Positions 8,484 through 48,055 of a stretch of DNA of 64,000 nt are shown one piece after another. The position numbers and the translations under genes were made by a program. Under the pieces are notes generated by a model. That model worked only from the letters and a program-made list of their open reading frames with translations. It had not been told where the DNA came from and did not search any database. The stretch lies in IMG/VR virus record IMGVR_UViG_3300025410_000009; one strand, given 5' to 3'. This stretch comes from a virus (lineage: Duplodnaviria > Caudoviricetes). The stretch's first letter is position 1. Every line of letters begins with the position of its first letter.

Positions 8484-9758
8484 TTAGAATGTAATCGAGC
8501 CCGATTGTGTGTATGTGTAATACACATAACCATTTGTGTTATCTGTGTATTTTGTGGGATTACCTGTGGTGTTGGCCGGGGTGTAGTAGCCTACTCGCCA
8601 GCGCAGAATAACTATGCCCGAACCGCCAGTAAAGCCCAACTGCAAGGGTCCGTTGTTGCCGCCACCGCCACCGCCGGTGCTGCCTAGACCTGCAGAGCCT
8701 GCAGATACCCGGGTGACTCCAACCACAGCGTTGCCACGATCTGTAGATCCTGCGCCACCGCCACCCGACCCACCGGCTCCGCCACCAATTGATGCTGTGT
8801 AGGTATTGGCTCCGCCCCCGCCGCCAGCTAGATAGTACACACCCAAAACATTTTGTCCACTTGAGATATTGGTACCAATGTTGGGCCAAGAATTAATCAA
8901 GCCCACGCCACCAGCACCGCCATTGGCATCAGTTGGAGATGCGCCTGCTGCTCCAGCTCCACCCCCGCCACCAGCACTGTAGTATGTGGTGTTGGCGTTA
9001 CCGCCTGCGGTGTCGTATATGCTGCCGGCAGCTCCACCAGTCACCTGTGAGTAAGAGCCACCGCCACCGGAACCTCCGGCACTGGCAGTGGTTTGATAGC
9101 CTGCGCCTGATCCACCACCCTGTGCTACAACTGGACCAAATGCTGAAAATGTGCCGGTGTTGGTGCCGGCACCGCCTGCGCCCACAAATATGGTATACTG
9201 TGTTGCTGCTGTGGTATTCAAATAACCGGTTACATAGCCACCGGCACCTCCGCCACCACCGCCATACACGCTACTGGTGGCATCGGGTCCACCTCCGCCA
9301 CCACCGCCCACAATGATATACTGTACATTGGCCACGTTGGCAGGTGCAAACGATGTGTCACGCACAATAACTGGTGCTGATTTTGCCAATTCAGAGACAC
9401 CGCCGCCAGACCCGTATACATACAGAGCCATCACTAGATTTTGATCACCTTCGGTGATGCCGTCATTGGTTAGAGTTCTAGTGAACGTGGCTTGTCCATT
9501 AATGATAGTGACATTACCCGATACCTGCCCATCGGTCCAACGAGCAGCACCACCCGACAGCGTACTACCATCAGCGGCACTGCCCACTTGCCACGTCACT
9601 ACAGAATTATTGGCCACGCCAGTGGTTGACACTGTGAACAATAAGGTACCACCTTCGTTTACTTGGGCAACATTAGCTGAAATTTTGTATTTGCTATAAC
9701 TATTAGATATTGCCTCGAAGCCAGAAAATCCACCCGTCATTGAAGAAATTCTAGTCAT
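8484..9758 (-). CDS. Glycine-rich fibre/adhesin protein (Calx-beta/Ig-like N-domain + polyglycine domain)
   Basis: Start re-called at ATG 9758 (MTRISS), just after the upstream stop; 424 aa. VNEGGTLLFTV...EGDQ N-domain and YIIVGGGGGGG...GGSGIVILRW...SGSITF C-domain. Confidence 0.72.
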   Translation of the reverse strand: MTRISSMTGGFSGFEAISNSYSKYKISANVAQVNEGGTLLFTVSTTGVANNSVVTWQVGSAADGSTLSGGAARWTDGQVSGNVTIINGQATFTRTLTNDGITEGDQNLVMALYVYGSGGGVSELAKSAPVIVRDTSFAPANVANVQYIIVGGGGGGGPDATSSVYGGGGGGAGGYVTGYLNTTAATQYTIFVGAGGAGTNTGTFSAFGPVVAQGGGSGAGYQTTASAGGSGGGGSYSQVTGGAAGSIYDTAGGNANTTYYSAGGGGGAGAAGASPTDANGGAGGVGLINSWPNIGTNISSGQNVLGVYYLAGGGGGANTYTASIGGGAGGSGGGGAGSTDRGNAVVGVTRVSAGSAGLGSTGGGGGGNNGPLQLGFTGGSGIVILRWRVGYYTPANTTGNPTKYTDNTNGYVYYTYTQSGSITF

Positions 9759-28784: not shown

Positions 28785-30335
28785 TTAGCTATATTTATTG
28801 TTAGCTGGCAGCTCTTTAATGACCATGATACGCATGTCAGTGCCGTTAACACCGCTTGGCCATAATGCATGATATGTACGTTTAACTGGGGAGTTAGAGC
28901 CATTAATATTCAAGTATTCGTTATATACTGCCACATCGATCTCTTGACCACCACCTACTACGTCAGCGCCGACTGTGCCCAGCATGTCTAGTTCATCAGC
29001 ATATTTGAAACGACTGGTGTTCAAATTATTGATAAACGAAATAACATACTCGCCGTTCTCGGTCAAACTCAACTGTTGAGTAGAATTAATAACTGCGCCA
29101 CTATCTAACGAGTTAACATCGGCTTGTTTTCTTGTACTAGGAATTGGCAAGTCGTGTTCGCGAACAATAAACTTGTAGAATTGATTATCGGTCGAGTTTA
29201 CACAGAACAAGGGTCTATTGCCGGTATTGGCTGGATCACCGTGTGGGAAGCCAGGTAGTACGCCGCGCACAATGCCGGTAGATTTATCAACGCTGCGTTG
29301 TACCAACAACCAACTAAAACCAAGTGCCAACTCTTCAGGATTTTCACCCCAGACTGACAGGAATAGACCATGGTCGGTCAACACAATACGATAGCTCATT
29401 GGACTGGCTTCTTGTGCAGTTGCATCGTCAACTGGGTTTGTACCAAACAAGCCTGATACTTTTGATTTGTAATTCCAGCGATTTACAAAAAGTTCACCGC
29501 GATTATAAACATCGGGTCCATCACCGTATAGTGTTGCGCCGCTAGTAACTGCAGTTACTCCGTTGGGGCCTGCTGGGGTATGGACGCTAACTCCCGGAGC
29601 TGAAGTAGCCGGTGCGCCCTGAATCTTTGTACTGTCAAGCGGGTCCCAAGGGTTTGACCACGGAGCGCCTGTGTTGCCTACTGGTTCAGTGTATAGTCTC
29701 GGTGCGCCACTTATATAGTCTGTGCCAAACGCCAATTGGCCATCGGTTTGGCCATTTATTAGTGCATGAGCGAACCAAGGTGGTGTCAACGACGCTGCGT
29801 TGCCTGTAGTTAATGTAACTTGATCGTAAGCAATGTGTACGTTTGCAGAAGCAGAGCCAGGATTTCCCGGATCGCCCACTCGAATAGTAGCCGGGGTACC
29901 AAGATATACGCCCATGCTTTTGACTTTTATATTAGCGTCCCAAGCTGTCCAAGTCCCTGTTCTACCGTTTTGTCCGGCAGAATATAGTTCATAGGGCAAC
30001 CACTCAAAAGTTTGGAATACAATCCGCCATGGATCTGTTGCAGGATCGTCAACAGTGACATCACTTCTTGCAAACGGATCCATGTTTGTAGTTGACTCTA
30101 GCACAATGGTGTAGTTTTTTGTGGCGTCTACACTATTATAATTAGTAAAATCAATTGAGTTATCATTTACATAAACTATTTTCATGTGGTTTGCTTTTGG
30201 TACACCAAATAGTGGTGTACCGTTGCCAGATAGATCTCGCACCATTTGCCACAGTAATGTGTTGGTTTCGGGGGCACCTTGCCCGGTATAAGTGGTTACT
30301 GGGATTGTTGGTGCAGATGATGTAATTGTTGCCAT
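28785..30335 (-). CDS. Putative virion structural protein, paralog of the upstream gene
   Basis: 516 aa. Shares WLLVQRSVD / YKFIVRE / RFKYADELDMLGT.GADVV with 30351..32285. Confidence 0.6.
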   Translation of the reverse strand: MATITSSAPTIPVTTYTGQGAPETNTLLWQMVRDLSGNGTPLFGVPKANHMKIVYVNDNSIDFTNYNSVDATKNYTIVLESTTNMDPFARSDVTVDDPATDPWRIVFQTFEWLPYELYSAGQNGRTGTWTAWDANIKVKSMGVYLGTPATIRVGDPGNPGSASANVHIAYDQVTLTTGNAASLTPPWFAHALINGQTDGQLAFGTDYISGAPRLYTEPVGNTGAPWSNPWDPLDSTKIQGAPATSAPGVSVHTPAGPNGVTAVTSGATLYGDGPDVYNRGELFVNRWNYKSKVSGLFGTNPVDDATAQEASPMSYRIVLTDHGLFLSVWGENPEELALGFSWLLVQRSVDKSTGIVRGVLPGFPHGDPANTGNRPLFCVNSTDNQFYKFIVREHDLPIPSTRKQADVNSLDSGAVINSTQQLSLTENGEYVISFINNLNTSRFKYADELDMLGTVGADVVGGGQEIDVAVYNEYLNINGSNSPVKRTYHALWPSGVNGTDMRIMVIKELPANNKYS

Positions 30336-30350
30336 TATTAGTTTTCCTTA

Positions 30351-32285
30351 TTATGATGGTATGTAAGTAAAGAAGAAATCTTTAGATGTATAGCCACCGC
30401 CAGTTTTACTCAAGTATCTATCAAGGTCTTCAGCATTCACTGCATCCACCGTAAACACAATATCAGTTGGCTGTGTGTATGCTGCAGCTTGGATGCCGGC
30501 ACCGCCCAAAACAAAATTACCAGTGTCTTTGTCTAGATCAATGCCAAGCACATGCAATATGCTCTTGCCGCTAGATATATAATACTTGGGTGGATTACGA
30601 GCTATGCCTGTAGAGTCAGTAATTGGTGCTGCAGTTACATTTGTAGTTGGTAGCACAGTTAGCCCATGGCTTATATCGCCTAACGGATAAGGATCGTTAA
30701 ATGTTGCATTTGTGCCAATTTTTGCTATTACACTAGCACCAGCTGGATCGTATGCGCCACCAGCTTGATCTGGCCACCATGGGCCTTGTGGTGAGCACAA
30801 GGCAGCAATTCTTAATCCAGTGTTGTTGGCGCCTGCAGGTGGTAACGCAGCATAGGTTCTAGCACCAAGTTCGCCATAAGCTCTAAATTGAATTTGCTGT
30901 CCTGCCATAACAACATCAGCTGATGTTGTACCCATCAAATCTAATTCTTCAGTGTATCTAAATCTTGGCGTAGTCAAGTTGTGTGGGAAAGTCAACAAAT
31001 ATGTTTTATCTTCAGTCAACACAATTTGATTTTGACTGTTAAACAACATGCAGTTGTCAATGGTATTTTGATCAGCAGGTACACGAGCTGTTGGGTGTAG
31101 TACGTCTGATTCACGAACAATCATTTTGTAATATTTGTAGTTGACACCGTTGACCATGAATACTGGGCACTTGCCTTGAACTAGGGTAGCACCAGTATTG
31201 CGATCAACTGGACGTTGCACCACAACCCAATTGAAATAATTACTACTTGCTGTAGCTGCTGCACGTTGAGTACTCCAGTTACCTTCCCATACACCCAAGA
31301 AGAATCCTCTATTGGCCATGGTCAATCGATAGTTCATTGGATATGTAACTGATTGATTTGCTACACGAATTTTTCTATTATAGAACCCTTCGTTAACATC
31401 CGTAGACACAAACTGCCCATTTGTTTGCAGGCCGCCTATAGAGCCAACACTGTCAATGATGGCGCCGGTATCGTCTGTGATCTTACTAATAGTAACATGC
31501 CCAGCTGCCGGGTCGTTGTTCATCTGTAATGCTGTGGCTATGGCACCCGATACCATCTGCTCGTCAGTGACTGTGAATTGTAATCTCCATGGTTGAGTTG
31601 GCATGGGAACATCAGGTGGTGTTGCATTATCTGTGATGGGATCAAGTTGTGCAGTCACATCCAATGTGAAACTAAACGAGTCGGGATTTTTATTAATCAC
31701 AAGCCCAGTAGTCGGATCAATTATGTTAGAATTGGCTATGGCATTGTATTGTGTTAGCGGAGTTGAGTATTTGTCAACTCGGATAGTAGCAACTTTGGTA
31801 GTGGTGGCATGACCATTAACGTCTGCGGTATAAAGATCAACATTGGCCGATGTACCAACATCTATTTGATTGTATATTAACGAAATATCATAGCCATTTG
31901 TGAGTGAAGGCTCAAAGTCAGATCTCACATCACTGGTCAGTGTAACATTGCCTGATGCACCAGCTGCATCAGTTTGATTTACATAAACATAGAGTGGGGC
32001 ACGAGATTCACCTGCAAAAGTTGGCGGTGTTAACGGTCCATGGGGATCTAGAATCAATCGGTCGCCGGGTGACACTTTATGGATAGGAGTTGCCAAACTA
32101 ACCACAGTAGTTTTTAATGCAACCACATTGAGATTTCCAGCAGCAACATCGCTTGATGTTATGTTTGAACAATTAACTACTGAAAAGAATCCGGTGTTGA
32201 CCATGTCGGCAAAAACGTCAAGCATCACATCAGACACTCTGGTGTAGCCCATACGTTCAACCGAGTAAAAATTTTCTATTGCCAT
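30351..32285 (-). CDS. Putative virion structural protein, paralog of the downstream gene
   Basis: 644 aa. WVVVQRPVD / YKMIVRE / RFRYTEELDLMGTTSADVV; AGGAG SD and upstream GATAAATA. Confidence 0.6.
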   Translation of the reverse strand: MAIENFYSVERMGYTRVSDVMLDVFADMVNTGFFSVVNCSNITSSDVAAGNLNVVALKTTVVSLATPIHKVSPGDRLILDPHGPLTPPTFAGESRAPLYVYVNQTDAAGASGNVTLTSDVRSDFEPSLTNGYDISLIYNQIDVGTSANVDLYTADVNGHATTTKVATIRVDKYSTPLTQYNAIANSNIIDPTTGLVINKNPDSFSFTLDVTAQLDPITDNATPPDVPMPTQPWRLQFTVTDEQMVSGAIATALQMNNDPAAGHVTISKITDDTGAIIDSVGSIGGLQTNGQFVSTDVNEGFYNRKIRVANQSVTYPMNYRLTMANRGFFLGVWEGNWSTQRAAATASSNYFNWVVVQRPVDRNTGATLVQGKCPVFMVNGVNYKYYKMIVRESDVLHPTARVPADQNTIDNCMLFNSQNQIVLTEDKTYLLTFPHNLTTPRFRYTEELDLMGTTSADVVMAGQQIQFRAYGELGARTYAALPPAGANNTGLRIAALCSPQGPWWPDQAGGAYDPAGASVIAKIGTNATFNDPYPLGDISHGLTVLPTTNVTAAPITDSTGIARNPPKYYISSGKSILHVLGIDLDKDTGNFVLGGAGIQAAAYTQPTDIVFTVDAVNAEDLDRYLSKTGGGYTSKDFFFTYIPS

Positions 32286-33259: not shown

Positions 33260-33679
33260 TTATAATGTAATGGCTGTGCTGGCGTATCCATGCAAAACAA
33301 TAATTGGTTGTCCTGAATTTGGTGGTGCAGTAAAAGTCAGTGTGTTGCCAGCAACCGTGTACACTACACCGGGATTTTGAAAAACATTACCAACAAAAAT
33401 TATCATGTTGGCTTCTTGTCCTGCAGAGTATGCAATCGAAATAGTGTACGAAGTGGTTGAACCATCACCCATAAAAGAGTCTTTGGTTATAGCTGTGGTT
33501 CCTTCTATGCTGACCACACGCCAACTGCCATGAGTATAATACTCAAACTTGCCAGTGGTGGAATTCAATCTGAATAGCCCGTCAACTGGCGAGCTTGGCC
33601 CAACAGCACTGGATCCATATGGAGCTCGTATGCTGTAGCTAGCAGATCGCAATTCACGATTCTTTATAAATCTTCCCAT
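33260..33679 (-). CDS. Small structural protein with an 'FxGDG' module
   Basis: 139 aa; KDSFMGDGSTTSY...VFVGNVFQNP...Y...TLTFTAPP. Confidence 0.62.
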   Translation of the reverse strand: MGRFIKNRELRSASYSIRAPYGSSAVGPSSPVDGLFRLNSTTGKFEYYTHGSWRVVSIEGTTAITKDSFMGDGSTTSYTISIAYSAGQEANMIIFVGNVFQNPGVVYTVAGNTLTFTAPPNSGQPIIVLHGYASTAITL

Positions 33680-34000: not shown

Positions 34001-34618
34001 TTATAATATCAATGAATATATCAGTGCCTTGCGACGAGTAATCAACTCATCAGCTGGGCTTTGTGTGTTTCTAATAAACAATCCCGAACCACCGCCACTG
34101 GGCACTTTGGCATACACCGTGGTGTACCCTGTGACTGGATCAGAATCTGTAGTTTCGTGTCTAACTCGTAAAATGGTCTGCAAATTCAATGCACTTGACT
34201 CAGGTGTGTGTATTGTGATGTCACGGTCTTGATCACAATAAATCATGTAGCCATTTGTGTTTAAATCGCCACCAAGATGTGGGTCAGTGTCAGTGACCAA
34301 TTTTGTACCTGATAGTTCGCGCCAATTGGTTCCAGAATTGATTTCCCAAACCAGCGAGTGCTCGTTCCAGCGTATACCAGCCTGCGGGCTATCACCGCGA
34401 TTGACTTCGATGCCAGCATTGAGAGTTGGTGCCCCAGTTACCCCAGCATTTAAAGTTATGAAATTATCATAAACCAAAGTGTTAGCTGATTCAAGAGCTG
34501 TTGACGACCCAAGCACAAACAAATTGCCGTTGATGGTAAGATTATTTGTATCTATTGCTATGTTGCCGTTGGCAGCAACTAGGTTATAATCTCCGGATAT
34601 TCTTTTGGTAACAGACAT
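34001..34618 (-). CDS. Fibre-like structural protein
   Basis: 205 aa; NAGIEVNRG...IRWNE and DTDPHLGGDLNTNG motifs. Confidence 0.6.
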   Translation of the reverse strand: MSVTKRISGDYNLVAANGNIAIDTNNLTINGNLFVLGSSTALESANTLVYDNFITLNAGVTGAPTLNAGIEVNRGDSPQAGIRWNEHSLVWEINSGTNWRELSGTKLVTDTDPHLGGDLNTNGYMIYCDQDRDITIHTPESSALNLQTILRVRHETTDSDPVTGYTTVYAKVPSGGGSGLFIRNTQSPADELITRRKALIYSLIL

Positions 34619-34706: not shown

Positions 34707-36374
34707 TTAACCGTAATAGGCCAAAATGTCAAAGTTTTGGATCCATACTAGGCTATCAGCAGTTTGTTCGGTCACTTTAGAATAGTCCAAAGTCCAAGCA
34801 GCTGATTTGTATTCACCTGCAGGCCAGTCGCTACCATCAGTAGCACCCGAATTTGGTGCAAAGATCCAAGCATCGTTAAACGCTGACATTGGCACTAACA
34901 GAGCACGGTGAGCAGTTAGCTTGGTCACAAAGTACAAAGATGAAGTGTAGTCCATGGCCAAAATAGCAATTTCGCCAGGATTTTGTGGCCAGTGGCCAAC
35001 CAACTGTGCTGACTGTTCAATTAGTGGACGATTTGCTACTTCTTCAGACAAAATAACAGCACCGTCGATTTGACCAGCCACAGTAGTAAGATCGCCATGG
35101 ACATTTTTCAATGTAAATGTGCTGGTACCATTTGTGGCAGTAACTTCGTAATAACAACCGCTATAATATCCGCCAATGGATCCTGCACCAGTCAAGTTAC
35201 CGTGAATAACCACATAGCTACCAACTGCAAATGTACCAGCTGGCTGCGGAATACTGATACTAAAAGCACCGTGTGTGTTTGTAGCAGTTAATACACCATA
35301 TTGTGCAGATGTCAAACTGGCAAATTGGCGTTCACGAGTTTTATATCTACGGCTCGAAACTTGCTTGATGATGTTAACTGGCAAGTAGGGAACTGCGCTT
35401 AACAATTCTACAGGGCTATAACCATAAACAGTGATAGCGCGAGATACATCAGTAAAACTATAACTTTCTGGAGCAACAGCATACACATCGTAACTGGCGT
35501 TGGCATCAGGAGTAAAGCTCACCAATGGGCCACCTGTAACAATGTAAGCACCTTCGCTTACAGCAATTTCATAGCCATCGCCTGGATTGGTAACATCAAA
35601 GCCCAATAGACCCAAGGTGATAGTGGCTTTAGCGCCAGTACCACTGCCAGTTATAGTATCCAACACACCGGCTGCACCAGTGCTAGGGAACACAGTATAG
35701 TTGCCAGGCACTGAAGGAGCACCAAAACTGTAAGCACCCCATACTAGATTGTCTAGTACCAAACCAGCACCGTTGTTGTCGATTGGGCCATCATGACATG
35801 TTGCTGTAAAACCGTTGGATCCACCTGCAATGGTAGTCGGGGGAGCACCAGTACCAGTCCATACACCTGGGTTGACAACCACAATACTTGTTGCGTGACC
35901 GCTGGTGCCAGCAGTGACTTTGACTGTTAAGGGTGTAGAGAAATTGCTGTGTGAATATGTGACTTGGTCACCGTTGGTGCCATTGCCAGGATCCAAATTG
36001 TTACCGCCGTTATTGATATGAGGAGTGCCAATGATAGTAATGGCGCTAACTGGGGCACGAGCTTTTGTGCTGGCTGTACCAGTATGCACTTCAACTACAT
36101 CACCCACTCGATATCCTGTACCATTTGCTGTTGTTGCAAACGACAAGGCTTGATAGTGTGCTACCACCTGAGCGGTGATACCATCAGCCATCTGTGGGGC
36201 TTCAACAACATACGTAGGTTGCACTGTCCAACCGTCGCCAGTACCGTTTACTGTAATGCTTTCAATACCAGCGCCGCCTAGACCAGCATCACCTGCTGTG
36301 TTGGCTGCACCGTAGTTGCCATCCCGACCTGGATTGCGACTACCAAAATATTTTTTACTTAAAGGACGTCCCAT
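34707..36374 (-). CDS. Putative virion structural/decoration protein (MGRPLSKKYFG...)
   Basis: Start re-called at ATG 36374 with an AAGGAG SD; 555 aa. IESITVNGTGDGWTVQP and GTGYRVGDVV motifs typical of T4-like structural proteins. Confidence 0.6.
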   Translation of the reverse strand: MGRPLSKKYFGSRNPGRDGNYGAANTAGDAGLGGAGIESITVNGTGDGWTVQPTYVVEAPQMADGITAQVVAHYQALSFATTANGTGYRVGDVVEVHTGTASTKARAPVSAITIIGTPHINNGGNNLDPGNGTNGDQVTYSHSNFSTPLTVKVTAGTSGHATSIVVVNPGVWTGTGAPPTTIAGGSNGFTATCHDGPIDNNGAGLVLDNLVWGAYSFGAPSVPGNYTVFPSTGAAGVLDTITGSGTGAKATITLGLLGFDVTNPGDGYEIAVSEGAYIVTGGPLVSFTPDANASYDVYAVAPESYSFTDVSRAITVYGYSPVELLSAVPYLPVNIIKQVSSRRYKTRERQFASLTSAQYGVLTATNTHGAFSISIPQPAGTFAVGSYVVIHGNLTGAGSIGGYYSGCYYEVTATNGTSTFTLKNVHGDLTTVAGQIDGAVILSEEVANRPLIEQSAQLVGHWPQNPGEIAILAMDYTSSLYFVTKLTAHRALLVPMSAFNDAWIFAPNSGATDGSDWPAGEYKSAAWTLDYSKVTEQTADSLVWIQNFDILAYYG

Positions 36375-36461
36375 TTTATTTTCTCCTTGTGAAACACGGC
36401 GTTCTAGGCCGTACGCGGTTGGATTTCCGCATAAAACTTGCACCATGCAAGTCGTATAAGA
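36375..36461 (-). promoter_or_regulatory. Structured 5' leader with three consecutive hairpins
   Basis: ACUUGCA-UGG-UGCAAGU, AUGCGG-N8-CCGCGU and ACGGC-N7-GCCGU lie between a CATAAATA box (36462-36469) and the SD. Confidence 0.5.
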
Positions 36462-36510
36462 TATTTATGAAAATTTGTTTTAGCATACCCAGTCATCCAT
36501 AAATATTGGC

Positions 36511-37125
36511 ATGAAATATTTTATTTTTGACTCCAGCAACGACGGTGTTGTCTGGATGGGCAATCAACTGTCTATAGCCAACCGACTGTGTCACGGTTTA
36601 CTTGACTGTGAAATCAGCATGGTTTGGCCAAATAGCAAATCATATCAGGTGCTAACAACAGCGAATGGTGCCAACTTGCATTGGAACTATGCAACAAAAC
36701 AAATGCTACCGCTACCAGAATCGGCTATTAATTCATTATTTGTTGAAAAGAAACGCCTAGCCGGCATACGACATCCTGCTATGTCAAAATTATTTGTTCT
36801 TGGTAGCCATATGATTAGAAAAATTTACACAACAACGGTGCCCACAATTGAAAATGATCTATCATTTGCGCTCGACAATTCAGACCCCAGTAAAGATCAA
36901 TACGACTATTCGGTCACTGAGTACGCACAAATTACTGGGATCACCGACCGTGATGCCTACAAAGAACTTACGCTGTATGTTGAGAACATGCGGACACAAA
37001 AAATCAGAACATTTAGTTACACTGAATATTTTTCTAAAAAAATTAATTCAGCTACTACCCAAGAAGAAATTGCCATAATCATTGAAGATATTGAGAAAAA
37101 ATTTATTACAGATAGTCAAATATGA
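36511..37125 (+). CDS. Hypothetical protein, translationally coupled to the amide ligase
   Basis: 204 aa; ATGA overlap with the next gene; CATAAATA box 5 nt before the ATG. Confidence 0.7.
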   Translation: MKYFIFDSSNDGVVWMGNQLSIANRLCHGLLDCEISMVWPNSKSYQVLTTANGANLHWNYATKQMLPLPESAINSLFVEKKRLAGIRHPAMSKLFVLGSHMIRKIYTTTVPTIENDLSFALDNSDPSKDQYDYSVTEYAQITGITDRDAYKELTLYVENMRTQKIRTFSYTEYFSKKINSATTQEEIAIIIEDIEKKFITDSQI

Positions 37126-38210
37126 TGCGTTGTAATGCATACAATCCCTTGGTTTTTAGAACTATGCAAGGTCCAGACTGGGATCGCTGGCGTTCGTTGT
37201 ACAAATTAATAAATGCAGCCGTGTCAATGAATGACCGTACTGGCTATATTAAAACTCCGGTCAACTCAAATGTGCCAGATGCATTGGCCATGCCCGAGTA
37301 CGATCCTAATTTTGGTTTGAGCTATCAAGACTGCTGTCATAAAAAAGTCAACGAATTGGTTGCGCTGCAAGATCAACTTGGTGTACCCATCAGAGTCATG
37401 TATTCAGGCGGTATCGACAGTAGTCTAATCTTGAGCAGTTTCATTGATGTTCTAGGAGTCAGCGAAACTGCGCGACGCATTGAAGTACTAATGGATCAGG
37501 AGAGTATACACGAAAACCCCTGGATGTGGGATCGATTTATTCGTAGCAATTTCACTGTATGCGACAGTGACAAACATGGTGCATATTACACCAAAGACAA
37601 TATCTTAATCGGTGGCGAAGGAAATGATCAATTACTAGGAACCGACATGTATCGTGACATAGTACGTCGTAACGGCGATGGCATACTCAATGTGAGATGG
37701 ACTGAGGCCAATATTAAATCTCATATGATTGATAGGGGCATGACCAATGCTGAAGCTGACATGTGGTTTGAATTATATATCCAGCAGATGTCCCGAACAC
37801 AAGCACCCATTGACACCATTGGTGATTTTTGGTGGTGGGTTAATTTTAGCTGCAAGTGGACCACAGTGTTTCACAGAATGATGTTTTATGTGCAGAACCC
37901 ACAAGACATCAACCAGGAGTACATGAACACATATTACCAACAATTTTTCAACACAGTTGAATTTCAAAAGTGGAGTTTACGGGATCGAGATCACAAGCAC
38001 CAGGGCAACTATATTACCTATAAGTTTCATGCTAGGGAGTTAGTGGCCAAGACCATGGGTGCGCCCGAATATCTCAACAAGATCAAACGTCCCAGCTTGT
38101 CACATGTGACACGCTTTAAACATGCATGCGATATAATTGACGATTCGTACCAGTTTCACTACAATGTGAATCCCATGGACTGGTACAACCCCGATAACTC
38201 ATTTGTCTGA
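37122..38210 (+). CDS. Stand-alone asparagine synthetase-like (ATP pyrophosphatase) amide ligase, no glutaminase domain
   Basis: 362 aa. PP-loop VMYSGGIDSS and ILIGGEGNDQLLG (compare AsnB SGGLDSS and SGEGADELFGG); only ~90 aa precede the PP-loop. Confidence 0.72.
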   Translation: MMRCNAYNPLVFRTMQGPDWDRWRSLYKLINAAVSMNDRTGYIKTPVNSNVPDALAMPEYDPNFGLSYQDCCHKKVNELVALQDQLGVPIRVMYSGGIDSSLILSSFIDVLGVSETARRIEVLMDQESIHENPWMWDRFIRSNFTVCDSDKHGAYYTKDNILIGGEGNDQLLGTDMYRDIVRRNGDGILNVRWTEANIKSHMIDRGMTNAEADMWFELYIQQMSRTQAPIDTIGDFWWWVNFSCKWTTVFHRMMFYVQNPQDINQEYMNTYYQQFFNTVEFQKWSLRDRDHKHQGNYITYKFHARELVAKTMGAPEYLNKIKRPSLSHVTRFKHACDIIDDSYQFHYNVNPMDWYNPDNSFV

Positions 38211-38858
38211 CAGATAAGTTCGATTCAGCATGGTGTGGTTGTGATCAGTTGGGCCCCAATCGCCATCGGGGTGAAATGCGATCACTGTCATTGAAGAATC
38301 TGCAGTCCTAAATCTATGTCGCTCGTGCTCCTGCAAGCAAAAGCTAACACCCACTGTTAACGCATCTTCTTGTTCAGCACCAGGATTGCCGTGTTGACTA
38401 TATCCTGATCCAGCAATAACACAGCCTAGTCTGATGCTGGGGTGTGTATGAAATGATTGGCTGATACCAGGCGGGAAATACAACAAGTTTAAACTGCTAT
38501 CGCCTAGTCGTGCAGGATACACTAATAAACTGTCGCTACAGCCATCAATATAACTCAATCGCCCTTTTGCCTCGACCCAGCCAATTTGGTTAGGTACTCG
38601 ATATCCAAGTCGTACAATCAAGAATAATTGATCTGATACTATAGCTGACATGTTGTTATTAACTGTAAGCCCAAAATATTGCCCGGCTTCAAGAGCAATT
38701 GTTTTACCGTCGACAGTTAATTGGCTGGCACCATAGCTATAACCATATATGGAACAGTGCTGGCAAAAGTCAGGCAATACAAAATTACCAGCAGTCAGCA
38801 TGTAGCCTGATGATGGGTACATGGTGTCCCAAAGATTTAGTTGATTTGAAATTATCAT
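38199..38858 (-). CDS. Cupin-fold metalloprotein (3-His type)
   Basis: Start re-called at ATG 38858; 219 aa. FPPGISQSFHTHPSIRLG..IAGSG and ERHRFRT motifs. Confidence 0.72.
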   Translation of the reverse strand: MIISNQLNLWDTMYPSSGYMLTAGNFVLPDFCQHCSIYGYSYGASQLTVDGKTIALEAGQYFGLTVNNNMSAIVSDQLFLIVRLGYRVPNQIGWVEAKGRLSYIDGCSDSLLVYPARLGDSSLNLLYFPPGISQSFHTHPSIRLGCVIAGSGYSQHGNPGAEQEDALTVGVSFCLQEHERHRFRTADSSMTVIAFHPDGDWGPTDHNHTMLNRTYLSDK

Positions 38859-38889: not shown

Positions 38890-38912
38890 AAAAAAGGGCC
38901 TTGCGGCCCTTT
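38890..38912 (-). terminator. Intrinsic terminator after gp23 (GCAA loop)
   Basis: Minus strand AAAGGGCC-GCAA-GGCCCTTTTTT. Confidence 0.85.
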
Positions 38913-44935: not shown

Positions 44936-47900
44936 TTAATAGGAGTTATCAAGTAATCTTTGCTGTAAATCGCGGGTAGAAGATTGCATATCCACTTGAT
45001 CTCCAGCTTTGCTGACCAGCTGTCTTAGCAAATCCAGCTGTTGCTTCATTAAATCATTTAATTCTGCACCGGCAGCAGCAGATTTTACGTTGCGATCGCT
45101 GCCAGGTGCAACTATGCTTTGATTTGAGTCAGTGTCTCGGTTGTCTTTTGAACCACCAAATAATCCACCAGTTTTTATTTTAAAGTTATTATCAGACTGT
45201 ATTGAAGAAATAAGACCGTTGATGTCGGGTGTGTTAAGGCCTGGTTGACCGGTATTGTTAATACCATATGGCATTAAATCTTTAAAACTATCTTCTATAG
45301 TGGCACCAATACTCTTACTGGTATCATCTTTTTTATCGTTGGCTCCAACAAAATTATCAAGCATGCCACTGCCCAACACACCGCCAACTATGGTACCGAC
45401 TCCAGGCAATATCATTGACCCAAGTGCTGCGCCAATGGCTGCATTACCCATTGTATCAAGCACGCTGGGTCGTTCTTTGTTTTTGTCGGCTGCTTGGTTA
45501 GCTGTCATTTGATCAACTATTTTTTGATTTTGATCAAATAATCCACTAGTACCCAGCATCTTGCCAAGATCCAATTTGGAGGTGCCGAATCCCATATCTT
45601 TAAAAGCACGCCCTAGATCGTTATTGGATTTTACGAGTTCGCTAGTGGAGCTTTCCCATACGCCCATGTCCGGGCCGTTATCTTTAGTATCCTGTGTTAA
45701 CCCGCCCAGCAAGCCGCCAAGCGCAGTACCAATGCCAGGAAGTATCGCAGTACCAATTGCAGCGCCCATTGCAGCACCGCCCCAATTGGTTGATTTAGAG
45801 TCGTTGGATTGACCCATGCTGTTGCGAGTAAAATCGCCCATGTCCAATTTAACTGGAATAGTCTTGCCGTCAGGTAAAGGCACTATGGCTTCAGTACCGT
45901 GCAACAATTGCTGATAACCCGAGGTGGGACCAGTACTGACACCGCCCATGGCATAGCCTTCTTCTTTTTTCCCAGATGTCCAGTTACTGAATTTGTCAAC
46001 ACCTTTACCAATGGCGCCGCCAATTGCGTCACCCACTGCGCCAGCGGTTAATCCACCGAGTATTGTACCTGCTATACCACCAAGTTCGGTGCCAATTACA
46101 GTCCCAACACCGGGAGCAATAGCTGTACCAATTGCGCCACCAATTACTTCACCAAAACCTAAACCCACTGCACTACCAGCAATATCACCAGTGATACCAC
46201 CAGCGGTTGATCCAAATTCTTCTTCTTTACCTTTTTTCTTGGTACCTAACCCCATATCGTTGAGCATGTCCTGCACTGCGCCCAGCATCTCTTTAGATAC
46301 TTCGGCAAATTTTGCAATAGCCGGCGTTAATTCTTTTTCTAATGCCAGTTTTAAATCTTGTGCTGCCTGCTCAGCTGATAGTACACCATCGGTTAATTTA
46401 TCGTTAGTTTCTTTTTGTTTTTTTGCAGCTTCCTGTGCACTCTTTACTGACTCTTCAGTGACTTTATCAGTATTGTCAACTACTCCGCTAATTCCTCGAT
46501 TTAGATCTTCTAATCCACCGGCACCGGCCATGCCTGCAATACCTATGTCATTGAGATTCCCAAAGTTTGCACGCATCTTGTCATTGGTTTTACCCTGCAG
46601 ACGTTGTGCTTCGTCAACTGAGAATTGCCCGCTTTTTGCTAAATCCACCATGCCGTCGATTTGTTCAGACATACCCGGCAATTGTTGCATTAAAATATTG
46701 GCATTTTTATCAACCACATTACCCATGGTTAGTTTTTCCATGAACGCTTTTTTACTAGTTTCGTCCATGGTGTTCATGCTCTGTATTATTTTATTCATTA
46801 CACCGGGCTGTTTCTTTTCCAATTCCTGCAATTTGTTTCGGAACGCCACCTGTGTTGCAGCCTTGCGGTTTTCTTCCATTTTACGTTTTGCATCTTCGCC
46901 GGTTATTGCTGCAATAGTACGTAGATTAGTGGCATATGATGCAGTTTCTTGAGCAATTTGTTTATCGCTCATGTTTTTCAACTGGTTGCCTTTACGCAAA
47001 TCTGCCATGACTTCAGCTGTTAATGCTGCTTGATCTTCAAAACTGTACCCCAGCTGTAGCATTTCTCGCTGCAATGATTTGCCGCTGGATCCTATTAATT
47101 TTGACGATTCAGCACTGACCGCACCCATCTTGCGTGAAGCCTCACCAACACCCAAACCGCTTTCTGCTAGAGTACTTGAGTTAGCCGACACCACTTTTGA
47201 GAATTGTTCGACAGTTAAACCGGCACTGTTTGCTGCTTGCCGCATACCAGTCATGCCATTGGCAAACAAGGCTCCAGACGAACTCATGCTATTGAAAGCA
47301 TTGACTGTTTTTTCTACTTCCTTGGATAAAACCTCGATGCCAAATTTGGCCAGTTTGCTTGCCCCGCCAGCAAACGATTGTAGAGCGCCACCAAATAGAT
47401 CAAGTGCAATACCTGCGTAGCCAGCTTTGCCTTTAAGGTGCGACATGGCACTGCCAACACCTTGCATGGCTCCACCAAGCATGCCAGCTGATCCGGCTGC
47501 AAGATCAACTGCACCATTCATTAGCGTGCTACTTAAATCAGTGGAGCTGGCACCCGATTGTAGGGATTTTACAAAACTACCGGTAGTGGCAGAAATCTGA
47601 CTAACAGCAGTTTTACTAAAGGTTTTAATAAACTCAGACGTAGCTTGCTGAGTTTGCACCAATCTTAAATTTGATGCTACGGTTTCTCGTTGTTTTTGTA
47701 ATGCTTCCTTGTGGCTGTCGTCGGTTGTGTTTTTAATTGCAGCATCAAGATCTTTAAGACTTTTATTAAAGTCTTTCATGGTGTCGGCAAAATTCTCGCG
47801 ACCTATAGAAGTAAAGCCCTTGATGAATTTGCCCATTACACCATCGCTAGCGGCCTGCTTGATTTTGGCGTTTAATTCGAGCGTGGATCGGTATTGTTCT

Positions 47901-48055
47901 CGTTTGGCTAGATCTTCTTTCTTTTGCTGGGCTTGTCGTGCGGCAGCCGATTGATTTTCTTTTTTATACTGTTTTAAAATTTCAGCCAGTTCAGGTTTCA
48001 ATTTAGCAAACAGCTCAATCACAGCATTGAGATCTTGGTCATTCATTTCAGCCAT
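44936..48055 (-). CDS. Tail tape measure-like protein
   Basis: 1039 aa, largely helical, with Gly/Ala-rich hydrophobic zipper segments; adjacent to hub-assembly genes. Confidence 0.7.
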   Translation of the reverse strand: MAEMNDQDLNAVIELFAKLKPELAEILKQYKKENQSAAARQAQQKKEDLAKREQYRSTLELNAKIKQAASDGVMGKFIKGFTSIGRENFADTMKDFNKSLKDLDAAIKNTTDDSHKEALQKQRETVASNLRLVQTQQATSEFIKTFSKTAVSQISATTGSFVKSLQSGASSTDLSSTLMNGAVDLAAGSAGMLGGAMQGVGSAMSHLKGKAGYAGIALDLFGGALQSFAGGASKLAKFGIEVLSKEVEKTVNAFNSMSSSGALFANGMTGMRQAANSAGLTVEQFSKVVSANSSTLAESGLGVGEASRKMGAVSAESSKLIGSSGKSLQREMLQLGYSFEDQAALTAEVMADLRKGNQLKNMSDKQIAQETASYATNLRTIAAITGEDAKRKMEENRKAATQVAFRNKLQELEKKQPGVMNKIIQSMNTMDETSKKAFMEKLTMGNVVDKNANILMQQLPGMSEQIDGMVDLAKSGQFSVDEAQRLQGKTNDKMRANFGNLNDIGIAGMAGAGGLEDLNRGISGVVDNTDKVTEESVKSAQEAAKKQKETNDKLTDGVLSAEQAAQDLKLALEKELTPAIAKFAEVSKEMLGAVQDMLNDMGLGTKKKGKEEEFGSTAGGITGDIAGSAVGLGFGEVIGGAIGTAIAPGVGTVIGTELGGIAGTILGGLTAGAVGDAIGGAIGKGVDKFSNWTSGKKEEGYAMGGVSTGPTSGYQQLLHGTEAIVPLPDGKTIPVKLDMGDFTRNSMGQSNDSKSTNWGGAAMGAAIGTAILPGIGTALGGLLGGLTQDTKDNGPDMGVWESSTSELVKSNNDLGRAFKDMGFGTSKLDLGKMLGTSGLFDQNQKIVDQMTANQAADKNKERPSVLDTMGNAAIGAALGSMILPGVGTIVGGVLGSGMLDNFVGANDKKDDTSKSIGATIEDSFKDLMPYGINNTGQPGLNTPDINGLISSIQSDNNFKIKTGGLFGGSKDNRDTDSNQSIVAPGSDRNVKSAAAGAELNDLMKQQLDLLRQLVSKAGDQVDMQSSTRDLQQRLLDNSY

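Follow-up and report, generated by a model that had tools for sequence, protein, structure and literature searches.

A glutaminase-less AsnB-fold enzyme with a new partner protein and a linked cupin in a freshwater jumbo phage: a candidate amide-forming pathway

The A-B-cupin locus

This report concerns three small genes in a 64,000-nucleotide stretch of viral DNA, hereafter the window, taken from IMG/VR record IMGVR_UViG_3300025410_000009. The source is an uncultured freshwater jumbo phage whose record is 210,216 bp long with a CheckV completeness of 60%. Two open reading frames (ORFs) on the plus strand, ORF A (36511..37125, 204 amino acids (aa)) and ORF B (37122..38210, 362 aa), overlap in the sequence ATGA, and A is preceded by a box resembling a T4-type late promoter, CATAAATA (36498..36505, plus strand), which ends 5 nt before its start codon. 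A first-pass annotation, made from the DNA sequence, had described these ORFs as a late-expressed operon and the only plus-strand unit of the fibre and head region, encoding an asparagine-synthetase-like amide ligase, with the motifs SGGIDSS and GGEGNDQLLG, that might modify or cross-link virion proteins. The two ORFs, their coupling, the two motifs and the box are all real, and A and B are indeed the sole long plus-strand ORFs from about 9.7 to 48 kb of the window, where the surrounding block consists of minus-strand virion genes. A third gene, missed in that annotation, lies on the minus strand and converges with B (38199..38858, 219 aa); the 3′ ends of the two overlap by 12 nt, and it encodes a cupin. 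The trio consists of an enzyme of the AsnB fold, predicted to be adenylating, with a new obligate partner and a cupin. In the literature searched no published description of A, B or the trio was found, and no model for it exists in Pfam, PHROG, NCBIfam or PADLOC, which bears out the earlier suggestion that the pair is undescribed.

Fold and motifs of the enzyme B

In B, SGGIDSS occupies residues 95-101 and GGEGNDQLLG residues 164-173, and both vary little or not at all among 32 homologues with identities as low as 28%. The PP-loop SGGIDS (95-100), E131 and GEGxDQ are invariant in this set, which also keeps D38, R39, P46, G165, E166, D169, Q170, K301 and K320, among others. The PP-loop of B aligns with those of AsnB, LarE and ASNS. 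The AlphaFold 2 (AF2) model of B has a predicted local distance difference test score (pLDDT) of 93.2 and a predicted template modelling score of 0.91. When it was aligned by VIA-align against 48,161 PDB representative chains, the five best were all AsnB-type synthetase domains: TsnB9 (Z 12.4, 259 residues aligned, root-mean-square deviation (rmsd) 4.8), human ASNS (Z 11.1, 215 residues, rmsd 4.0), beta-lactam synthetase (Z 10.6, 225 residues, rmsd 5.8), carbapenam synthetase (Z 9.6, 220 residues, rmsd 4.7) and E. coli AsnB (Z 9.1, 207 residues, rmsd 3.6). The next class, GMP synthase and generic PP-loop chains, scored Z 8.0 and below. Foldseek against the PDB gave weak matches only, to LarE and AsnB, with template modelling (TM) scores of 0.16-0.38.

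The 362 residues of B hold no N-terminal nucleophile (Ntn) glutaminase domain: the model aligns from about residue 143 of the AsnB-type chains onward, and the alignment of 32 homologues has no conserved N-terminal cysteine. The earlier description of B as a glutaminase-less protein with the adenylating fold of asparagine synthetase is thus upheld by the structural ranking. B shares with the AsnB synthetase-domain enzymes (human ASNS, beta-lactam synthetase, carbapenam synthetase and TsnB9) the fold, the PP-loop SGGxDS, a second motif of the GEGxD type and an acidic residue about 36 positions after the PP-loop. Unlike AsnB, it is about 190 residues shorter, lacks the glutaminase domain, carries its own invariant N-terminal motif (D38-R39...P46) and has a separate obligate partner and a linked cupin, and its sequence similarity to AsnB is confined to the PP-loop. 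Against the Pfam family Asn_synthase (PF00733) B scores 13.7 bits, with a cut-off of 21, over positions 10-35 of 354 only, which is the PP-loop, and its homologues score 12.9-15.4 bits. By score, B lies outside this family, though it is AsnB-type by fold. Likewise, when the profile of B was compared by hhalign with E. coli AsnB, the PP-loop was the sole part to align, so that catalytic residues can be mapped no further than the two motifs. Fold, PP-loop and GEGxD-type motif make ATP-dependent carboxylate adenylation, followed by amide formation, the most likely activity of B.

A word-indexed search found 131 relatives of the same length as B, and an exhaustive search found 1,035 cluster representatives at E up to 1e-3; the family comprises about 1,000 representatives at 50% identity, mostly viral. 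Neither A nor B had a match by tblastn among 50,697 GenBank phage records. PHROGs, NCBIfam and PADLOC gave no match for A, B or the cupin, and the PADLOC-DB 2.0 defence models gave none (E up to 0.1) for these three or for the proteins of a distant branch described below. One B homologue, P0125 (561 aa, 44% identical), is fused to a C-terminal GNAT acetyltransferase domain.

The partner protein A

A has no catalytic signature, no residue is invariant across its homologues, and it matched no Pfam family. Its AF2 model (pLDDT 95.9) consists of an N-terminal alpha/beta domain (residues 1-67) and a helical bundle (75-203), a fold that is neither Ntn-like nor that of a winged-helix recognition element (RRE) of ribosomally synthesised and post-translationally modified peptides (RiPPs). 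A PDB profile search with A gave nothing meaningful, and VIA-align found only generic three-helix bundles (Z 9.6 or less), which is uninformative since such bundles match widely.

A direct search with A finds only three close homologues; nonetheless, the genes upstream of distant B homologues align with A. Using an iterated profile over the ORFs of 80 viral and 79 genomic B loci, we detected an A homologue as the gene immediately upstream of 117 of 182 B copies, mostly overlapping by 4 nt; in the close family this holds for 75 of 76 dereplicated loci. The close-family carriers are uncultured phages, bacteria of the candidate phyla radiation (CPR; Nomurabacteria, Moraniibacteria and Saccharibacteria), Bdellovibrionota and Burkholderiales. 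Across 98 pairs the distances within A follow those within B (r = 0.85; the best of 500 permutations reached 0.057), and the copies in tandem A-B-A-B arrays have diverged as units. Such co-divergence is expected of linked genes in any case and is compatible with a partnership. Such tandems, with up to three pairs and 31-53% identity between copies, occur at seven loci (L017, L020, L027, L028, L056, L092 and L004), and L005 and L042/L049 carry further, more distant B paralogues, each with its own upstream genes.

Complex prediction gave weak support for an association of A with B, at a score of 0.37 against 0.00 for the best control. The mark used for this score is reached by 58 of 80 solved complexes and by 2 of 110 mismatched pairs, and is reached at 0.60 or under by just seven of the 80 solved complexes and by both mismatches. 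The contact agreement among the runs was at least 0%, and the pLDDT of the partner at least 85.

The C-terminus of A is biased in composition. Of 112 unique homologues, 75 end in I, L, V, M or F, where other ORFs, taken as a rough background, do so in 27%, and the end often reads [DN]-x-x-[ILV]; it closes a well-packed helix, with a pLDDT of 75 for the last residues.

In a distant bacterial branch (Bacteroidota and Alphaproteobacteria) B and the cupin occur with other small partners that are unrelated to A: hhalign of A against the small upstream ORFs of the Bacteroidota (127-aa and ~165-aa families) gave probabilities below 1%. Nor does A show homology to the N-terminus of the long B fusions described below or to the 200-aa protein of a second gene cluster. 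A is best described as a clade-specific, obligate and non-catalytic partner of B. It had been proposed that A is either a substrate or an adaptor of B. A looks like an adaptor, and the lack of any invariant position counts against its being the substrate that is modified.

The cupin as third member

Clustering of all neighbouring ORFs revealed that the commonest neighbour of A-B is a cupin of 210-235 aa, to whose family the window gene belongs. Of 135 dereplicated loci, 66 have it at most 6 kb from B; these comprise 23 of the 76 close-family loci and 43 of the 59 loci of the distant family. The window protein matches Cupin_2 (PF07883) at 27.7 bits with a cut-off of 27.2; the metal motif HxH...H (H137, H139 and H181) is invariant in 28 homologues, which also keep C107, D120, R143, H196 and H208. 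Its best PDB sequence match is acireductone dioxygenase (E 2e-4).

Gene fusion bears out the linkage: 18 of 24 long B homologues carry the same cupin family at their C-terminus (E ~1e-50), and the seven that were scanned with Pfam have mostly S-adenosylmethionine (SAM) methyltransferase domains between B and the cupin. The named long fusions come from the diatoms Seminavis robusta and Chaetoceros tenuissimus, and others are MMETSP transcripts. The cupin is therefore, as its fusion to B proves and as is reported here for the first time, a third member of the A-B system, whose conserved core is B plus the cupin. In the long homologues P0270-P0292 (1,100-1,800 aa) an N-terminal stretch of some 250-400 aa precedes the B domain, which is followed by either one or two SAM methyltransferase domains and by the C-terminal cupin; the conserved N-terminal region of the eukaryotic fusions has no similarity to the PDB (profile search) or to ORF A. 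The combination of a methyltransferase with a possible cupin decarboxylase suggested dimethylsulphoniopropionate synthesis, an idea that was dropped, as PMC11306096 gives no link to a cupin or to AsnB.

Genomic settings and a second enzyme set

To the left of A-B in the window lie genes for tail-fibre-like and virion structural proteins (34001-34618 and 33260-33679), and to the right those for the Gp23 capsid protein, scaffold, prohead protease and portal. The same arrangement of A-B-cupin beside gp23 is kept in L007, a relative of the same genus whose major capsid protein is 91% identical, and in no more distant phage locus. In phages with a B 44-51% identical and below, A-B stands among genes for dCMP deaminase, RNase H, SegE, PD-(D/E)XK and metallophosphoesterase proteins, or near desaturase, GNAT and hydroxylase genes. 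The presence of A-B-cupin among virion genes is a genus-specific insertion, newly described here. From the position of the unit the first-pass annotation had argued for virion modification, a step that finds no support: in relatives the unit is largely unlinked to structural genes, only L007 keeping it beside gp23.

In Duganella sacchari, and at 24 of the 59 viral loci left after dereplication, a second set of genes adjoins A-B in a recurring order. Its members are a short PP-loop enzyme, a 200-aa protein, an FA_desaturase, a GNAT protein, an Asp_Arg_Hydrox protein, a B12/radical-SAM enzyme and a 270-aa protein. In the genome of the window phage this set lies about 95 kb from A-B (C1:178146-181825, equal to L170:2146-5826). 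There, overlapping and co-directional genes encode a 215-aa GNAT-like protein, a 74-aa carrier protein (PP-binding, E 2.8e-7) and the 309-aa short PP-loop enzyme, followed by the 200-aa protein, the FA_desaturase and a GNAT protein, and then by a nicotinamide adenine dinucleotide (NAD) sugar-nucleotide dehydratase. Thus a larger gene set is split across one genome with late-type boxes on both parts, which is likewise new here. The short PP-loop paralogue has a sub-threshold QueC match. The carrier protein was considered as a general feature of the set and rejected as such, for it adjoins the short PP-loop gene only in this genome, in L016 and in L031/L032.

Other settings are more varied. The neighbours of A-B in CPR bacteria include YcaO and nitroreductase genes (seven dereplicated loci) and a phosphoribosyltransferase (PRTase)-propeller gene. 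Radical-SAM/B12 neighbours occur at eight loci. In Tenacibaculum, a chromosomal setting outside phages, the A-B-cupin trio lies between two aconitase genes. A Mu-like prophage of Xanthomonas albilineans has A-B, the cupin and a 2-oxoglutarate (2OG) oxygenase directly after Gp45/Gp46/Baseplate_J/Gp48. At this locus (L166, 8234-14956, Mu-like prophage or tailocin-like) no recognisable tail-fibre gene follows Gp48, and A, B, the cupin and the 2OG-Fe(II) oxygenase precede DUF5675 and a holin.

The promoter-like box and timing

The core ATAAATA occurs 16 times in the window against 11.4 expected, so its number is not enriched; 11 of the 16 lie at most 100 nt upstream of the start of an ORF of at least 120 aa and in the right orientation, so its placement is not random. 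The 64-bp divergent spacer upstream of A contains two back-to-back boxes, an arrangement also found in the closest relative, L007, where the box (8560-8566) lies 4 nt, rather than 5 nt, before the start codon of A at about 8571. CATAAATA is a putative promoter. Should it act as T4 late promoters do, the transcript would begin at the start codon of A or directly next to it. Boxes 4-5 nt from the start (window 36498-36513; L007 8560-8573) leave no room for a Shine-Dalgarno sequence, unlike the other boxes of the window, which sit 16-100 nt from their ORFs. If the box is a promoter, the mRNA of A would thus be leaderless or nearly so.

An ATAAATA box also stands 20 nt before the carrier-protein gene of the unlinked second cluster, which indicates that late timing, if conferred by this box, is not specific to virion genes. 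Of the earlier claim of a late-expressed operon, the late-type box is supported and the timing is putative. Among the sequencing runs listed, those that contain this DNA are freshwater metagenomes and none is an RNA data set.

Other features of the window

A terminator-like hairpin with a T-run (38893..38912, minus strand) lies between the gp23 stop and the start of the cupin gene and, as a consensus scan suggests, would set the cupin gene apart from the capsid transcript. Adjoining A-B on the other side is a 579-aa ORF (34707-36446, minus strand) without a match in Pfam or PHROG. L007, though otherwise syntenic, lacks this ORF, an insertion specific to the lineage. Its true start is likely an internal ATG at 36374, after GGAGAA. 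Farther away, two adjacent paralogues at 28785-30335 and 30351-32285 (both minus strand) each hit 'tail sheath' family 12249 of PHROG (E 8e-53 and 8e-60), and a separate 1,039-aa gene at 44936-48055 adjoins the portal gene.

Possible functions of the unit

The interpretation that we rank first, with a probability of roughly 45%, is that A-B-cupin forms one arm of an accessory amide-forming tailoring pathway whose substrate is a small molecule or lipid-like. It starts from what is observed, namely the fold and intact motifs of B, the linkage of B with A and with the cupin, the accompanying gene sets and their distribution. What ranks it first is the company of tailoring enzymes around A-B: acyltransferases, a membrane di-iron enzyme, hydroxylases, methyltransferases and sometimes a carrier protein. 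The process could be outlined as follows. B would bind ATP at the PP-loop, adenylate a carboxylate, and hand the acyl group on, either to an amine or to a nitrogen within the same molecule, with release of AMP and pyrophosphate; as B has no glutaminase domain, glutamine hydrolysed on its own chain would not be the nitrogen source. A would bind B and probably supply substrate recognition or delivery, and the cupin, presumably a metal enzyme, would act on the same substrate or product as B. The rest of the pathway would be encoded about 95 kb away by the genes for the carrier protein, the second, short PP-loop enzyme, the 200-aa protein, the membrane di-iron desaturase or hydroxylase and the GNAT acyltransferases. 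What the pathway makes, late in infection, would probably be a small molecule or a component of the envelope that is amide-linked and possibly acylated or lipid-like, and the arm A-B-cupin would have landed between tail and head genes in this phage genus only.

A known system of comparable make-up is that of the asnO-ngg genes for the osmolyte N-acetylglutaminylglutamine amide, in which an AsnB-type enzyme and GNAT-type acyltransferases produce a small amide-linked molecule. AsnO retains its glutaminase domain, unlike B; B has a sub-threshold match, at the PP-loop, to the asnO-ngg type family TIGR03104 of NCBIfam (12.8 bits, with a cut-off of 570), and no ATP-grasp Ngg homologue was seen.

Several points weigh against such a pathway. 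B has no detectable sequence similarity to AsnB outside the PP-loop, so catalytic equivalence is argued from its fold and two motifs. Just three lineages have the carrier-protein gene beside that of the short PP-loop enzyme. Among the members of several accessory families (Asp/Asn beta-hydroxylase-like proteins, prolyl-hydroxylase-like 2OG oxygenases and YcaO) are enzymes with protein or peptide substrates, and the gene context would fit such a substrate too. Moreover, the unit lies among virion genes in the window phage and L007, and directly behind the baseplate genes in the X. albilineans prophage. The chemistry of B, the binding of A to B, the timing and the nature of the substrate are all matters that we infer.

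The second possibility, raised at the outset by the first-pass annotation and in our judgement unlikely, is that B modifies virion proteins late in infection, amidating or cross-linking side-chain or terminal carboxylates of tail-fibre or head proteins that A, as a chaperone-like adaptor, would present. The position between tail-fibre-like genes and gp23 in two phages, together with the late-type box, would fit this role, as would the X. albilineans locus, which follows baseplate genes where fibre genes usually stand, and neighbouring hydroxylase families include protein hydroxylases. A likeness of A to fibre-assembly proteins, which had been suspected from its C-terminal KKINSATTQEEIAII, can be compared with the DUF4376 tail-fibre chaperones, of which Alteromonas phage V22 gp27 is an example (PMC7289586, PMC10579305). 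A resembles them in size (~195-240 aa) and in having a C-terminal helical domain. Foldseek matched the model of A to DUF4376 proteins of BFVD at E 0.009-0.2 and TM 0.34-0.64, and to those of the ESM Atlas at TM 0.42/0.44, though helical bundles match widely and the three-helix bundle is a very common fold. At the sequence level the likeness fails: none of 40 A homologues gave a PF14301 match (E up to 1), and in hhalign of A against V22 gp27 the only stretch aligned was the KKINSATTQEEIAII motif, at a probability of 0.2%. A is, moreover, always paired with an enzyme and not with a fibre gene. DUF4376 sequences were found in 0 of 6 and then in 1 of 201 genomes searched, and tblastn with that one returned nothing. 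Comparison with relatives argues against a role in virion cross-linking: in every phage locus outside the genus the unit stands apart from structural genes, and it occurs also in chromosomal non-phage settings and in diatom fusion proteins.

We hold it less likely still that A is a scaffold on which chemistry takes place: B would adenylate the C-terminal carboxylate of A and attach an amine, and the cupin, methyltransferases, desaturase, hydroxylases and GNATs would tailor the adduct before its release. This follows the logic of LysW-type or pearlin-type pathways. The one-to-one pairing and co-divergence of A and B, which extends to paralogous pairs in one genome, the lack of a catalytic signature in A, its frequently hydrophobic last residue and the clustering of tailoring enzymes around the pair are all in keeping with it. 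However, the C-terminus of A is biased rather than invariant and ends a well-packed helix, and the distant branch and the eukaryotic fusions are wholly without A, so that B does not need A as its substrate. Were this scheme true, biosynthesis would be templated by a protein and driven by a PP-loop enzyme, a logic that would owe its spread mainly to aquatic phages.

Lower again we place the maturation of a RiPP, in which B would form a macrolactam or a C-terminal amide on a ribosomal peptide with A as leader-binding partner. Lasso-peptide cyclases of the McjC type and peptide-amidating AsnB homologues have the AsnB fold, do not hydrolyse glutamine on the same chain, act on peptide carboxylates and use a separate recognition protein. 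The glutaminase-less AsnB fold of B, the YcaO and nitroreductase neighbours in CPR bacteria and the radical-SAM/B12 neighbours at eight loci recall such systems. Against this, the 64-bp spacer upstream and the convergent cupin gene downstream leave no room for a precursor gene in the window, and YcaO is absent from most phage loci. A precursor peptide, a PqqD-like RRE and a leader protease are absent from the window and from most loci, where no systematic search for short ORFs was made. No PqqD-like or transglutaminase-protease Pfam family was found in A, its flanks or 40 A homologues, and A, with its alpha/beta domain and helical bundle, has neither the winged-helix fold of an RRE nor that of the lasso recognition protein.

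Modification of a nucleotide or nucleic acid, in which B would act like QueC or TilS on the carboxylate of a base or nucleotide, is improbable. Genes for dCMP deaminase, RNase H and PD-(D/E)XK proteins adjoin A-B in many phages, PRTase-propeller genes do so in CPR bacteria, and the short paralogue has its sub-threshold QueC match. For B, however, neither Pfam nor NCBIfam gave a QueC match, no QueC chain appears among the listed VIA-align matches, and AsnB-type domains outrank QueC, TilS and GuaA-type PP-loop enzymes structurally. A and B are also mildly acidic (median isoelectric point ~6.2), and the fusion partners of B are the cupin and methyltransferases of a small-molecule type.

Finally, a plain ammonia-dependent asparagine synthetase that supplies asparagine during infection is very improbable, since, for all the shared superfamily fold and the retained PP-loop and GEGxD motifs, an obligate partner and a linked cupin are not expected for asparagine synthesis, the Asn_synthase match is sub-threshold and limited to the PP-loop, and several diverged paralogous A-B pairs occur in one genome.

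Implications

The B family is tied by fusion to a specific cupin and to methyltransferases in diatoms, and by synteny to a desaturase, GNAT and hydroxylase set in many large aquatic phages. As cultured carriers exist (Duganella sacchari Sac-22 and Xanthomonas albilineans), the question of what the unit makes is directly testable. If the substrate were instead a virion protein or the tail of A itself, a new kind of post-translational chemistry would be at hand. The fusion and synteny of B point to an undescribed metabolic capability that phages may force upon their hosts in the late phase of infection and that is shared by some bacteria and algae.

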